Positions 227 through 62,618 of a stretch of 64,000 bases of DNA are shown here, piece by piece; position 1 is the first letter of the stretch; each line of letters opens with the position of its first letter. The notes under the pieces were generated by a model. That model searched no databases and was not told where the DNA came from. It saw only the letters and a program-made list of their open reading frames with translations. Source of the DNA: Moniliella sp. 'wahieum' (taxonomy: Eukaryota); contig RSEE01000045.1 of NCBI GenBank assembly GCA_003971905.1, positions 186,001 through 250,000 on the forward strand, written 5' to 3'. Both the position numbers and the translations under genes were made by a program.

Positions 227-1261
227 GGGGTGAATGATTCACGCGCCACGGTGTACCTGGCATTGGGACGGTTGTGTGGGCCGGATGATCGATTGTCTCG
301 ATCATCTGTCAGCAGAAGCCGATGCACTATGGCTCGCGCCTCCTTCTCCTTGCGGCGGATATAGTGGAGAGCCCAAAATGGTTGAACGAAATGCTGGTGG
401 GGTTGTTGGATGGCTAGCCACTGGTCACTCCAGAGCGACAAGCAGACGACAGGCCTCTCCCATCTTCCCCTTCGAAGTTGAGGCGTTCGAGTGCGAGTAG
501 GTGCCGGGGGCCGGTCCGTACTGAGTGTGGTCTGATTTCTGTCTGATTCGGCTGGCATGCTGACATGCATTTGACAGTCACTAGTCAGGTGACAGGCGGT
601 GACATGTGACACACGTGTGGCACATGTGATATCAAGTAAGTAGCCACTAGTAGTAACCGGCTACCGTAACCATCAACATTAGCGTCCCGTGTGGCAATAC
701 GTGGCCGGTATAACCGGTAGCCATTAAACGTTACGCGCTAACCCAGCAGCCCCGAGCAGCTCCAATCGCTTGTTCCCCGCTTCTTCCGAAGTTCACATCG
801 TTCAGAGGAGACGGCAGCGACGGAGCTCAATGTGGCCACACTGGTTCTTTGTTTGGTGTCCCTCGGTTGGACCGGGCAAGCGGAGTTGGGCATGGCGGCC
901 CCCTGGCACATGAATCATTTCGAAACAGGCCTGGTTGCCCCGCCTACCAACGGAAACAGATGAGGGCTAGAGATAACTCGAACCCTCCGCCCTGTCCCGG
1001 ATAAGGACCGAGGGCATGCTTGCCCCCATCGTTTCGCTCGACAGCGTGTGGCAGGGTGTGGCCTGAGCGAGGGCCCGGGCAGGGAAGAGGAGGGGCGAGG
1101 CTCGGTCCCGAGGAGCAGCCAACGGAGCAAGCAAATCGCCGGGCGGAATGGATGGTTCCGCCGCCTTCAACGTTCAATGTTCAACGTTCAACCCATCCGG
1201 CCGGCCTTTTGTTCCAACCGAATTGTTCTGTTTCCCAACGACCCAGTCGCTTGCCCCCACC

Positions 1262-2365
1262 ATGATGGGACCTGCTGGATTTACGCGTCTCTTTGTCGGC
1301 CATCTCGCCCGACGTGCGCGTTCGCGATCTCGAGGACGAGCGGGCGCTATGGGGTACGTCGATCGCTTGCTCGCTTCTGTACTGCACTAACACGTCCCCT
1401 CGTCCTAATCAGCGCCTGGTTGATGTGCGCATCATGGGCCACGGCAACTTTGCCTTTGTCGAGTTTGACGACCCTCGCGACGCTGACGATGCCTCCCGCG
1501 TACGTCCCCTCCCCCCTTGTGCTGCAGCAGGAGCTCTTCGTAACCTACTCCTAACCACTGCCTCGTCCCCCTTCCCAGGACTTGCACGGCCGCATGTTTA
1601 TGGGCGACCGTCTGATTGTCGAGCCCGCCAAGCGCCCGCCTGGCCCGGCCGGGCCCGGCCGTGGGCCGCGCGGTGGCCCCCGTCGCCCCAGGTTCCGTCT
1701 GTTCGTGAGCAACCTGCCCCCCGGCACGTCATGGCAGGACGTCAAGGATCTGGGACGCAAGTACGGCCATGTTCAGTTTGCCGACATTGATCCCTACCGC
1801 CGTGACGAGGGAATGTTGGAGTTTGAAACTCCGAAGACCTAGAGGCAGCGTTGCGCATCGACGGCATGGTGCTCCGCGGTAACACGCTCCGTGCCGAGCC
1901 GGAAGACCCCTCGTTCCTGCCGCCTCCCACGCGCCGCTCGCACTCGCCACGCCGCTCGAGGTCCCCCCTGCCACGAGATGGCAGGGAGCCTTCCCCCCAC
2001 GGTTATCGCGACGACCGATACCGCGACGACCGGTACCGCGATGACCGCTACCCTGACGACCGGTACCGTGGCGAGCGTTCCCCGTCTCGGGATCGTGACG
2101 AGGGTTACCCCTCGTCCGAGCGGCCGCCCCGTGACGACCGCCCGCGATCGATCTCTCCCCGCCCCGAGGCGGCGGTGGTGAAGAAGGGGGAAACCCCTCC
2201 CACCTCTCTGCCCCCGTGGCTGCTCCGGAAGAAACGGAAGAGACGGGAGACAAGACGACGGACAAGACTGCCGAGGAGCCTGCCGAGGAGCCTGCCGAGG
2301 AGCCTGCCGAGGAGCTTGCCAAGGAGCCTACCAACCAGCCTGCTGAAGAGCCGATTGAGGCGTAA
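1262..2365 (+). CDS. SR-family splicing factor with two RRMs and an RS/RD domain (SRSF4/5/6, Srp2-like)
   Basis: RRM1 has RLFVGHL and NFAFVEFDDPRDADDA. RRM2 has RLFVSNLPPGTSWQDVKD (the SWQDLKD signature of SR proteins). These are followed by RS dipeptides, RYRDD repeats and an acidic EEPA tail. Introns at about 1354-1412 and 1500-1578; several 1-bp frameshifts. Confidence 0.9.
2270..2330 (+). repeat. 12-bp coding tandem repeat (GCCGAGGAGCCT) x~5 encoding AEEP repeats
   Basis: Read directly. It lies in the tail of the SR gene; the RSLP-repeat ORF is the off-frame reading. Confidence 0.8.
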
Positions 2366-2634
2366 ATGCTCCCCCTCCCTCCCCTTTCTGCGCTCACGTC
2401 TCTCTTCTGCGTTGACTTGGTGACCTATGTGATCTCTCTAGCACGGGGCGTTGGTCGCAGATCAGAGAAAGGGCAAGGCCAATCCCCTGCCGTGGCAACG
2501 GGGCAAGACGGAGGAAAGATGAGAAATGTTATCAAGTTTAGGTATCACACGTACATCGCATGGGACAGGAGGAGATAGGAACACGGTGTTTGGGGGCAAC
2601 ATGAGGAAGAGGATCCACGGCTTCCATAACCGCT

Positions 2635-59235: not shown

Positions 59236-60799
59236 ATGGCCGACACGTGTATACCGCAGGGGCCGAGAATGACCGGTCTCTCACGCCTCGTGCCGACGAG
59301 CACTCCTACTTTGAAGGAAGAGAAGATGATTTCGGAGGACTACAATGGCGTCGTGTCCTCGGATGACTACAACGGGGAAGAAGTTTCTCTCAAGACCGTC
59401 TCCTGGTCGGATGGCACTTCTACTCATTGTGACTGCCATTGCGTTGGGTGCTCTCTCTCTACCAGATGCCTACTCAAGTTGGGTTGCCCGCGGTTGTCGT
59501 GCTGACTGTGACCATTGGCCTCATCACATTTACCACTGATCTTTGGGACAAGTATGCAACAAAGAATGGGACATCGAGGCCTCCATTATTCCGACATTGG
59601 CTACCTTATGTGGGGCAAGGGGCCGCGAGGTCATCGGTGCCGCCTTTGTCCTCTTCCTTATCCTCGTCACCGGGTCCATGCCCTGACAGGTTCGATTGCG
59701 CTCGACACAATCTCTGACGGGCGTGCTTGCACATGGTCTGGTCGATTGTGTCTGCGGTGGTTCTGGTACGCTGTTTATCCTTACTTCCTCATTGCGCGCT
59801 GACTGCGCTAAAGCCTCTTGCCTCTAGTTTGTCCTCTCCCTACCCACCACTTTCGAAAAGGTTTCTTTGCTCGGCATCATCGATTTCATCAGTATCATCG
59901 CGCTATTCTCATCACCATGATTGCAACTGGCATTCGCGCTCACAATGGGCCCGGCGGTCTCGACGGGGTAAATGGCGCAACACTGCCCCTCCTGGCACGA
60001 GTTTCTCCGACGCGTTTAACGCTGTAACGGACATTGTCTTTGCCTTCTCATTTGCGTGTGCAGCCCAGTTTCCAAGATGAAATGCGCAAGCCGGAGGAGT
60101 ACATGAAGTCGACTGGACCCTTGGTTGCCGAGATTTTCATCTACACATTGACTGGTTCGATTGTGTACGTGTTGTTGGTGGCGACGTTCAGTCCCCTGCG
60201 CTGCTCTGCTGGCCATACTGTCTCGCGTGTTGCCTTTGGTTGTCGCGATTCCTGTCATTTTCATCTCTGGTGCAATCACACCACCACTGCCGTCGTTACA
60301 TTCACCTCCGTGCTTTAAGAACACTCCCCATCGTTACATCAAACACCCTTTGGTATCGCCACTTGGGTCGCGCTCTGTGCTTGCTCACTGTCATTTCTTG
60401 GGTCATTGTACGTACCAGAGAAACCCGTCTTGCTTCTGCTCACATTCTAACCCTTTTCTCAGGCCGAAGCTATTCCCTTCTTCTCCTCTCTCCTTTCAGT
60501 CATTTCGAGTTTCTTGATCTCGGCCTTTACGCTTATCTCCCACCGCGTACGTGTCCTCTGCTGTGCACCCGTCCGTCTTGTCCATACTAATTCTGTTTGC
60601 TGGCAGTGATGTACTTCATCTTGCTCAAGGAGGGCAAGTGGAACGCCAACAGGAAGAACATTTGTTGTCGATCGCGAAATTGCTGATCATCCTGCTGGGT
60701 CTGTCGTCTGGGTGCGGGTATGTACTCTGCGGCCGAGAGCATCAAGGAAGGCTACGACGGGACGTCGGTGGGCCATCCCTTCAGTGCAAAGGGGCGTGA
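59236..60799 (+). CDS. Mtr-like neutral amino-acid permease (AAAP); heavily frameshifted, possibly a pseudogene
   Basis: LKTVSW..ALLLIVTAIALGALSLP, HYSDIGYLMWG, SDGRAC, AILITMIATG, FSDAFNAVTDIVFAFS, FQDEMRKPEEYMKS and AEAIPFF. Indel density is very high. Confidence 0.8.
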
Positions 60800-62618
60800 A
60801 GGAGACCCTAAGAGGTCTTTCGAGCCTTAAAAAGCCGATTGGAGGAACATTTCCTGACGACCATCACAATACGTTGGGTTGGCATAGAGATCCCTATACA
60901 GGTAGAGTATAGCAGATCGACCGAGGAAATGAGCAGCTTAAAGCGTAACATCACAATAGGTGAACAGCTGGGACGAGGTCTGTAAACAAGCTTGATCGTT
61001 TGCCTTGTTTTGGTGCGTGCATTTTGGGCTGCTTATTTCTCCACCCAATTTCAGTTCGGCGCCTGTGAGACATGTGAGGTGCTTTCTCCGTCTCGTTCGC
61101 TCGTTCGCTCTCGTTACGTTGCCCCCTGCCTGCAGTGCGCCCTCTAGTCTACTCAGCTGCACAACCATTTATCAAGTGCGACACTTGAAGCTTGAATGTT
61201 GTCCTCAGACCGCCACACCGTGGTAGGGCGTTGCGCCCCACTTCCATAGGGGGTCCAGAGGTGGGACCCACCCCTGTAGGTTAGGGTACCTAACCCTTGG
61301 ACGGCCAATCGGGAGCAACATACTAGGGTATGTCCCAACCTCAGATCCTGGTCGAACCGAGCGGGTGTAGAGGCGCAGGAGAGACCCTCTAGTTTGAGTG
61401 GCTGTGCCTGTGTGGCTGAGACGGCCTGAGGCCCCTGAAGCCCGCAGCCCGCAGCTCAGATCCACCGAGTAGGAACAGCGTACCTATAGGTCGTCGCCCG
61501 TGAGGGGGGTCCACAGGAGCTCAGGGGTAGGGTAGTGGGTAGCTGAGCTGTAGCATGTAATAGGCGGAATCAGACGGCGTCCTACTAATGAGAAGCAAGC
61601 GCTTGAGAGTAAATCCGCGGCTAGCAGTGTAATCAACGTGAGTCATAAATTCGTAAGCATGGTAGAAGGTGGAAGAGGGAGGAATGGAAACATTGGAACG
61701 AGGACTAAGGACCACAGCTAGCAAGCCTTAGACATGATGCACGACTAGCTCATGACTGCAACAAGCAACAGGGTCGATCAGAGCACCACTGTGGTCGAGG
61801 TGTCGACGCATGCTCAGCGCGGCTGTTGGCTGTTGTGAGTGGCACTGCCCTCGTTAGAGATTTGTTGTAGGCGTAGCCTGCGCCCCGCGTCCTAACCGTA
61901 GCGCCTCCACATTGTTTCAATTGTATAAGTCGCTCGTGTAGTAGACACCGCTGGCGCATTCCTTTGTTCTTCCCTACCACCACCTCTTCGCTCAACGCTC
62001 AACGCTCAACTCGTTACCTCGTTCTCGCTCACCTGCTTCTGGTAGCTCAGACCGCGCCGTCTTCCTGCTGTAGTACGTTGCTACACGGCGGCGGAATATT
62101 ATACGTTTGGTGCAGCAGCGTATATTGGGAGCGACGCAAGGATACCAGACCGCAAACGAGACACGCCGCATCAGTCTCTTCGGTGCAGACCTGGCGGATA
62201 CAGCGGGAGAGAGAGAGAGAGGAGTATCGAGCAAAACGGGAGCGAGATACAGGTGGTGGTAAGGCAAATGCAAGCGATGCTACAAGAAGAAAAGAAACCC
62301 CTTCTGAGTAGGTAAGCTAACTGAAGACTCCAGACCTAGCCAGCCACGTGGCAACAGATTGACCCAAGGATCCTCGATTGGGCCCCAGCATCCACTTACC
62401 GCATATCTTCTCTCCATTCATACACTTGAGGAAAACGCAGACGGCGAAGGGTCCTGGGAGATGAGTGAGACTACATACACCTGATGCACACTGCAGGGGA
62501 ATGGGCAACAGAACCGGCTTATACCAATGCATCTACAAGGGAGCCAATCACTATGCGATTCAATTTGGTTGTATCGCACGCAGACAGGTCCCGCGCAATG
62601 TCGCCAAATCACTGGCAT

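Follow-up and report, generated by a model that had tools for sequence, protein, structure and literature searches.

Architecture of the locus

The window analyzed here is a 64-kb stretch of contig RSEE01000045.1, assigned to Moniliella sp. 'wahieum' (positions 186,001 to 250,000 of the forward strand), and our subject is a class of very short non-coding arrays that recur along it. The unit of these arrays is a six-base palindrome beginning with A and ending with T, A-xyy′x′-T, followed by one base N, and consecutive units therefore join through the triplet T-N-A. Arrays with this 7-bp period occur far beyond chance, obey a rule of symmetry instead of a rule of sequence, and lie in the intergenic DNA upstream of genes. 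All counts of period-7 elements given below refer to this one window.

The DNA is nuclear and comes from a Ustilaginomycotina-type, smut-related basidiomycete, as follows from its fungal domains, its best relatives and its introns. Its GC content is 57%. Long open reading frames (ORFs) carry eukaryotic or fungal domains, namely Sec63/DnaJ, GDI, SNF5, ING, MFS, the Rhp7 zinc finger, a fungal transcription-factor domain and RPN2. The best named relatives of one of the encoded proteins are found in Ceraceosorus guamensis (63%) and in Jaminaea, Testicularia and Violaceomyces (55-56%). Two public sequencing runs share part of the words of 24500-29500 (12% and 6%, respectively), and contigs from them were compared with 20001-40000. 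In the MFS transporter gene, two GT..AG stretches, 27857-27917 (61 bases) and 27970-28031 (62 bases), are missing from public-run contigs that are 95-99% identical to the window; both are thus introns, and a close relative or strain is present in the public data. Neither long dispersed repeats, direct or inverted, nor transposons were found in the window, and scans of it for Rfam families and tRNAs returned nothing.

Seven-base tandem duplications exceed chance

The initial annotation had described non-coding arrays of many different A..T hexamers joined by one base, and on re-examination of the window all of the arrays it cited were located at or beside their positions. The window contains 50 exact period-7 tandem duplications, compared with a mean of 3.0 and a maximum of 7 in dinucleotide shuffles, and a chance origin of this excess is excluded. 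The neighboring periods yield 48 duplications for period 6 (part of them coding; shuffle mean 12), 7 for period 8 (shuffle mean 0.8) and 6 for period 9 (shuffle mean 0.3). As short units repeated head to tail beyond chance, the period-7 duplications have the form of microsatellites. The arrays comprise 2.0 to 3.7 exact copies, and degenerate arrays extend up to 9.4 copies.

A hexamer palindrome is present in 24 of the 50 period-7 duplications, and all but one of the 24 belong to the A..T class. An A..T palindrome plus one base accordingly accounts for 23 of the 50 units, compared with about 3% of random heptamers that would qualify (7/256 by our own arithmetic). In 100 block shuffles, identical pairs of A..T hexamers separated by one base had a mean of 0.04 (12 in the window), and pairs of different A..T hexamers at the same spacing a mean of 0.51 and a maximum of 3 (6 in the window). 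The other 44 combinations of palindrome class, spacer and kind of pair, which include the C..G, G..C and T..A classes and spacers of 0 to 5, mostly lay near the shuffle mean, and none exceeded its shuffle maximum. By this count, which the initial annotation had left as a check, the enrichment is restricted to A..T hexamers one base apart and is unequal across classes and spacers.

The excess extends to the individual palindromes. Palindromic hexamers of the A..T class number 280 in all, versus 172 expected (z = 9), and odd palindromes centered on T-N-A are in excess at lengths of 7, 9 and 11 bases (z = 7.3, 7.6 and 7.2), while other center classes are not. After 1,065 bases of period-7 arrays were masked, the enrichment stayed, with 240 A..T hexamers versus 174 and 235 T-N-A-centered 7-mers versus 187 (z = 3.6).

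As to which hexamers are used, an earlier estimate of 12 out of the 16 possible stands if one mismatch is tolerated: each of the 12 GC-containing A..T hexamers has a copy 7 bases away with at most one mismatch. Perfect identical hexamers 7 bases apart are, however, found for five only, AAGCTT, ATGCAT, ACGCGT, ATCGAT and AGTACT. None of the four all-AT hexamers has a copy at this distance with one mismatch or fewer, as had been noticed by eye. ACCGGT and AGCGCT, which had been listed among the arrays, are present, but as hetero-pairs or in degenerate arrays only.

The element is a direct T-N-A repeat around a four-base palindrome

The formal description of the unit as TNA-N4-TNA with a palindromic N4 is correct and statistically very strong. 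T-N-A is the phase anchor of the arrays: among trinucleotides, autocorrelation at lag 7 is highest for TAA/TTA (4.9-fold) and TCA/TGA (2.6-fold). Pairs of T-N-A with a 4-base gap number 182 versus 137 expected, and those enclosing a 4-base palindrome number 83 versus 7.4 expected (shuffle maximum 14). No comparable excess was seen with gaps of 3, 5 or 6 or with the anchors A-N-T, C-N-G and G-N-C. The lag-7 excess of TCA/TGA resides wholly in sites with a palindromic N4 (57 of 95), the remaining 38 being the level found at other lags.

The two N bases of the 83 elements are identical in 65 cases (2.26 expected), complementary in 10 (2.34 expected) and otherwise different in 8 (3.23 expected). 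The element therefore consists of T-N-A repeated directly on either side of a 4-base palindrome, an arrangement that a plain 10-bp palindrome would not describe. Of the 16 possible 4-base palindromes, 14 are in use, AGCT being the most frequent (21 of 83), and the base x that closes the loop is A in 29 elements, T in 20, G in 18 and C in 16, without a preference for C-G. Every array of two units forms a perfect 13-bp interrupted palindrome. Among 23 A..T arrays, 16 are longer than 14 bp, the duplicated unit probably being accompanied by a partial extra copy, and the other seven are exactly 14 bp long.

The length of lag-7 identity tracts varies continuously between 10 and 26 bp and is most often 12-13 bp, and the identity with the base 7 positions away falls smoothly from 0.72 to background across about 10 bases on each side. 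This distribution fits two-copy (14-bp) duplications that have received about one substitution. Of the 95 TCA-N4-TCA sites, 57 have both gap pairs complementary, 25 have one and 13 have none, a ratio of perfect, one-pair-broken and no-pair elements from which we estimate that the elements are young, with about 0.1 substitution per site. Where two different hexamers adjoin in phase, four of the six pairs differ only at positions 2 and 5 (p about 0.05 by hand).

On the plus strand, the spacer base is C (TCA) at 33 loci versus G (TGA) at 15, and its clustering is weak (runs test, p = 0.086). The plus strand is itself richer in C than in G, with a cumulative GC skew of -0.89, and the spacer base follows this bias. 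The T-S-A dyad also occurs beyond period 7, in arrays of period 8-9, GCCTGAGC, CCTGAGCGC, GCTCAGCA and GCCTCAGC, which lie at 25216-25274, 26077-26097 and 57944-58010 and are built on T-S-A-centered odd palindromes (GCTCAGC, CCTGAGG).

Elements are restricted to intergenic DNA upstream of genes

The gene map against which the elements were placed is approximate, as it combines Pfam-supported ORFs with the longest remaining ORFs. The window contains 55 element loci in total, including those in its unannotated ends. Gene spans hold only three of them in 30.8 kb. Divergent (5′-5′) intergenic DNA holds 14 loci in 7.5 kb, with an element in each of the six regions, and convergent (3′-3′) intergenic DNA holds none in 2.7 kb, where about five would be expected, so that none of the five regions carries one. 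In tandem intergenic DNA there are 19 loci in 9.6 kb, confined to two of eight regions, and 17 of the 19 sit within the 2.3 kb that precede the MFS transporter gene. Because Pfam-supported genes stand on both flanks of only two of the six divergent and one of the five convergent regions, the link to promoters is approximate.

The excess of lag-7 identity is highest in two islands of about 2 kb, at 25.0-27.1 kb and 57.0-58.7 kb, each of which mixes many different hexamers, with at least nine within one island. Between the ING gene and the first island lies a unique, ORF-poor spacer of 3.2 kb (21607-24800; 51-52% GC) with only three elements and almost no period-7 signal. The lack of elements in 3′ intergenic DNA and in this long unique spacer may reflect a promoter-linked process or a regulatory role.

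From the left end of the window, a cluster at 560-640 comprises TCACTAGTCA (578), TGACATGTGA (600) and a degenerate ACATGT/CACGTG tract (lag-7 identity excess +0.064 in the 501-1000 bin), and an AACGTT-C array of 3.9 copies with 90% match spans 1166-1192. The divergent region between the Rhp7-like gene (minus strand) and the ORF at 7994 (plus strand) carries two copies of ACATGT-C (6964-6977), 2.6 copies of ACGCGT-C (7050-7067) and 2.3 copies of AACGTT-C (7068-7083); the isolated elements TCATCGATCA and TCATGCATGA lie at 7377-7410. Upstream of the amino-acid transporter gene, which diverges from a DEAD helicase gene, elements are scattered over 13865-15654 (13882, 14252, 14681, 15487, 15520, 15594 and 15645). 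Three exact copies of ATGCAT-G (20355-20375) occupy a divergent region of 413 bp before the ING-domain gene.

Island 1 (25010-27150), upstream of the MFS transporter gene, has 17 element loci. Its arrays include AAGCTT-C (25061-25083), AGGCCT-C (25131-25144), ATGCAT-G (25427-25443), AAGCTT-T (25476-25489), AAGCTT-G continuing in phase into ATGCAT-G (25781-25819), ACCGGT/ATCGAT (25878-25930, with ACCGGT at 25880 and ATCGAT-N at 25917), AGGCCT-G (26150-26164), AAGCTT-G (26288-26306), AGATCT-C with an imperfect middle unit (26712-26733) and ATGCAT-C (26797-27010). Further along, the HODM-like gene and the transcription-factor gene diverge from a region that contains a 13-mer in two copies that includes TCAAGCTTCA, together with the hetero-pair ACGCGT-g-AAATTT (35195-35298), and an isolated TCATGCATCA (43531-43540) stands just upstream of a minus-strand ORF with a PAPS-reductase domain. 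Upstream of the minus-strand SNF5-domain gene, an AAGCTT-C array at 45910 is contained within a perfect odd palindrome of 21 bp (45906-45927) and is accompanied by 2.1 copies of AGTACT-T (45952) and, within 45906-46017, by 2.3 copies of AGCGCC-G and by ATCGAT-c-AACGTT. Degenerate or hetero-pair sites of the ACCGGT or AGCGCT class lie at 45985 and 58197, and an isolated TGAGCGCTGA (51093-51102) is found upstream of the minus-strand GDI gene.

Island 2 (57029-58724) starts with TTCA-type repeats (57029-57078), followed by a degenerate ACTAGT-C array of 9.4 copies (57335-57399), ACCGGT-G decaying into GCCGGT-G (57433-57478), five copies of AAGCTT-C with 85% match (58049-58083), ACTAGT-T (58401-58415), ATCGAT-C (58594-58610) and AAGCTT-G (58704-58724). 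Toward the right end of the window are TGAAGCTTGA (61186) and 3.1 copies of AACGCT-C (61989-62010), a unit one mismatch off the palindromic form.

Repeats of other kinds were also recorded. A run of TAGCCCC, TAGCCCTTA and TTAGCCC-like units at 58270-58360 is heptamer- or nonamer-like and non-palindromic, and lacks the canonical TTAGGG telomere sequence. A perfect tandem duplication of 24 bp (10792-10841; 2.1 copies) separates two minus-strand ORFs, and a perfect hexamer microsatellite, (CCATTG) in 8.3 copies (51317-51366), lies inside overlapping long ORFs beside the GDI gene. Repeats of in-frame length at 2007-2068 (15 bp, 4.1 copies) and 2268-2352 (12 bp, 7.1 copies) probably encode a repetitive protein segment.

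Origin of the arrays

The initial annotation had offered two explanations, a cis-element read by its symmetry or the footprint of a local mutational process. Three of our results lean to a process of duplication. N is repeated directly in 65 elements versus complementarily in 10, a bias not expected of a site read purely by its symmetry; tract lengths grade continuously, which fits two-copy duplications with about one substitution; and a single 2-kb island mixes at least nine hexamers, unlike a cluster of transcription-factor sites. The reading that we favor, with roughly even confidence, is that the elements are a lineage-specific class of very short microsatellites of non-transcribed promoter DNA that turn over fast, arising through duplication of 7 bp and eroding through substitution. 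A 7-bp stretch would be duplicated in tandem, either by slippage during replication or through microhomology between the T-N-A triplets on its flanks, would occasionally expand to three or four copies, and would later decay by point substitution into the many partial elements of 10-13 bp. Units composed of A, a 4-base palindrome, T and N would be born or retained far more often than others. A symmetry-restoring step, in which the template is switched between palindrome halves, probably acts too, since in-phase neighbors tend to differ by symmetric double changes. According to the available text of PMC13167724, tandem duplication through microhomology has been recorded throughout fungi and bacteria; coding DNA is poor in such duplications, and their frequency rises when flap endonuclease is mutated. 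The constraint on the length of structured short repeats that is described in the available text of PMC7441554 fits arrays of two to four copies.

Several points weigh against duplication and decay. Neither slippage nor microhomology-mediated duplication would lead one to expect a period of 7, T-N-A boundaries or a palindromic middle. Nor is hairpin stability the explanation, since only two of seven arrays, 25776-25826 (z = -3.05) and 45900-45935 (9-bp stem, z = -3.62), fold better than shuffles, the rest ranging from +0.56 to -1.34, and since the loop-closing pair shows no C-G preference. A uniform neutral process should have marked the spacer at 21607-24800 and the convergent regions, which hold three and no elements, respectively. 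The elements outside arrays could be primary sites and not decayed duplications, and the evidence base is a single 64-kb window.

The same folds bear on the idea that the arrays are driven by structure, persisting or expanding through hairpins or cruciforms in DNA or RNA while selection or correction keeps their symmetry. The interrupted palindrome formed by every two-unit array, the predicted folds, which always consist of a 5-bp stem and a T-S-A loop, and the two arrays that beat all 200 shuffles speak for it. However, the remaining five arrays fold no better than shuffles, so that hairpin or cruciform formation does not characterize the set, the loop-closing pair shows no preference for stability, and the direct repeats of N would introduce a mismatch, C-C or G-G, at intervals of 7 bp. 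To our knowledge, T-N-A is not a specially stable DNA triloop either, the known stable ones being G-N-A, and we consider a structural origin quite improbable. Only slightly less so, and still improbable, is that the arrays are scars of an enzyme, a transposase, recombinase or domesticated nuclease cutting with a 7-base stagger centered on T-N-A in open promoter chromatin, where fill-in and rejoining would duplicate 7 bases and make the A..T hexamer the new junction. The sharpness in length (50 duplications of 7 bp versus 7 of 8 bp) resembles target-site duplication; duplicating an odd palindrome y′x′-T-N-A-xy automatically yields A-xyy′x′-T; T-N-A-centered odd palindromes are enriched, the 7-mers even with arrays masked; three of the seven palindromic A..T arrays of exactly two copies are in the T-N-A-centered frame; and restriction to promoters fits access to open chromatin. 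Yet the test of this frame is not significant (12 of 26 compatible versus 9.0 expected, over all T-N-A arrays of fewer than three copies), and the stagger leaves the pre-existing complementarity of the target flanks unexplained. Transposons, terminal inverted repeats and long repeat families are missing from the window, which thus offers no mobile element with matching ends in a fixed frame as target-site duplication would have it, and no fungal element with 7-bp duplications came up in the literature searched.

Under a regulatory role, a protein acting as a dimer or filament would recognize T-N-A every 7 bp, with its symmetric spacer, by shape or symmetry and not by its bases, and would set promoter activity or keep promoters free of nucleosomes. 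The presence of elements in all divergent and no convergent regions and their rarity in gene spans on the approximate map argue for such a role, as do their crowding upstream of the MFS and amino-acid transporter genes, the restriction of invariant bases to the T and A of T-N-A (in IUPAC code, TSA is its own reverse complement) and the enrichment of perfect 10-bp palindromes with complementary N (10 versus 2.34). A symmetric reader does not predict the identical N on both sides, however, nor the number of hexamers within one island; the continuum of decay and the excess of perfect over one-off sites (57:25) resemble turnover and not conservation; and the promoter link is as approximate as the Pfam support on its flanks. 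Viewed as an array of transcription-factor sites, the constant part is T-N-A only, the four middle bases ranging over 14 palindromes, and we know of no protein that requires four palindromic bases irrespective of their identity. We regard the regulatory explanation as unlikely, though a little more credit is due to a broader and still tentative proposal, that promoters carry a kind of symmetry code. Here, either an enzyme acting as a dimer would write T-N-A-centered 7-bp duplications with symmetric flanks, or a shape-reading protein would select arrays with T and A fixed every 7 bases; by our own arithmetic, three units make 21 bp, or two helical turns. A large effect (65 versus about 2) in which symmetry is fixed and sequence free points to a specific step of replication or repair or to an unusual DNA-reading protein. 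An artefact of assembly or base calling is very improbable. Among the public-run pieces listed, coverage was limited to the MFS gene and some other short stretches and included no array, which leaves room for it. Against it, the arrays comprise many different exact sequences restricted to non-genic DNA, include decayed copies and in-phase junctions, and adjoin genes that read cleanly, with two GT..AG introns confirmed. We know of no sequencing error mode that would be expected to write such 7-bp duplications.

Other candidates were rejected. Scars of topoisomerase II would differ in both stagger and flanking base, as C and not A is preferred 5′ of the cut in the presence of etoposide and the stagger is 4 (PMC6813358, in its available text). 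Duplications of 3-bp T-N-A by a Harbinger-like cut were discarded because TCA/TGA shows no excess at lag 3 (40 versus about 36), and leftover transposon ends because the 4-base palindromes are of 14 kinds and no element is present. Arrays of stop codons in three frames would be oriented to the downstream gene, and their orientation is inconsistent. Sites for heat-shock or other named transcription factors each fit one hexamer type only.

Comparison with known repeat systems

Microsatellite surveys in fungi usually end at units of six bases, so that a class of heptamers would go unseen. The elements lie in promoters, look young and are probably hypermutable, and for these reasons they may allow fast change of gene expression. 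Unstable tandem repeats in yeast promoters, reportedly described by Vinces et al. in 2009 as mostly AT-rich and of many unit lengths, would be similar in being short tandem repeats gathered in promoters, where they may influence nucleosomes and the evolvability of expression, but are said to follow no symmetry rule. Template switching in quasipalindromes, reportedly worked out by Ripley and by the Lovett laboratory for longer, foldable imperfect palindromes, is said to turn a single change in one half into a symmetric double change. Such double changes are what separates the hexamers in four of the six in-phase neighboring pairs, whereas a 6-bp palindrome cannot fold alone, and period 7 and T-N-A would stay unexplained.

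Microhomology-mediated tandem duplication, with the birth-death cycle of microsatellites, has features in common with the arrays: T-N-A...T-N-A is a 3-bp microhomology 7 bp apart, the products would consist of two units and a partial third copy, and coding DNA is depleted of them. It has, however, no preferred unit length, sequence rule or palindrome requirement, and hairpins and palindromes have no occurrence in the available text of PMC13167724. A looser analogy is provided by palindromic repeats of fungal mitochondria. The available text of PMC7218506 describes putatively mobile (A)n-TATA-(T)n palindromes in Fusarium and also names ultra-short elements of Podospora, PstI palindromes of Neurospora and GC clusters of yeast. 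As far as that text goes, these repeats are likewise very short, symmetric and intergenic and are tied to length polymorphism and slippage; in contrast to the nuclear arrays of the window, they are mitochondrial, each belongs to one sequence family, and they show neither period 7 nor a tandem of hexamer plus one base. Four fungal metagenome loci with 39-42% protein identity, too distant for a comparison of promoters, contain 12 exact period-7 duplications in 55 kb, which are GC-rich or of low complexity, and no heptamer of the A..T type.

The initial annotation knew of no named repeat class of this kind. This holds in part, for heptanucleotide tandem repeats are known in bacteria: Rehm et al. 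(2015) reported intergenic ones with the units GGGAATC in Xanthomonas and GGGGA(C/T)T in Nostoc (PMC4692102, in its available text). AAGCTT-S, the commonest unit of the window, also forms arrays in prokaryote genomes, with at least 121 stretches of four or more units and arrays of 4 to 12 copies. Among the matches listed, (AAGCTTC)n and (AAGCTTG)n are mostly from Pseudomonas, and also from Stutzerimonas, Zobellella, Halomonas and some metagenome-assembled genomes, and are intergenic (e.g., L015:2980-3160); beside them there are often arrays of AAGCTNN variants and not, among these matches, of other A..T palindromes. Other A..T palindrome units occur only five times in 484 kb of bacterial loci. 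These bacterial loci did not show the rule of many palindromes, and no description of many A..T palindromes in 7-bp arrays was found in the literature searched, which covered heptamer repeats of basidiomycetes and prokaryotes and fungal target-site duplications of 7 bp.

The bacterial repeats and the arrays of the window share period 7, a non-coding location, many loci per genome and the lack of an agreed function. They differ in host, the window belonging to a eukaryote with introns, and in copy number, which is two to four in the window and up to 26, with a preference for four, in bacteria. They differ also in their units, as each bacterial genome uses one motif family, G-rich and quadruplex-forming in Xanthomonas and composed of AAGCTNN variants in Pseudomonas, and the window uses 12 A..T palindromes under one symmetry rule. 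AAGCTT-S in Pseudomonas ties the fungal arrays to an unexplained bacterial preference for 7-base repeats, and a symmetry code of promoters, if real, would be the eukaryotic counterpart of these bacterial heptamers, pointing to a shared physical cause. The arrays of the window are eukaryotic, promoter-associated heptanucleotide repeats of probably mutational origin which, unlike their bacterial relatives in period, are governed by symmetry and not by sequence, and they apparently represent an undescribed kind of microsatellite.

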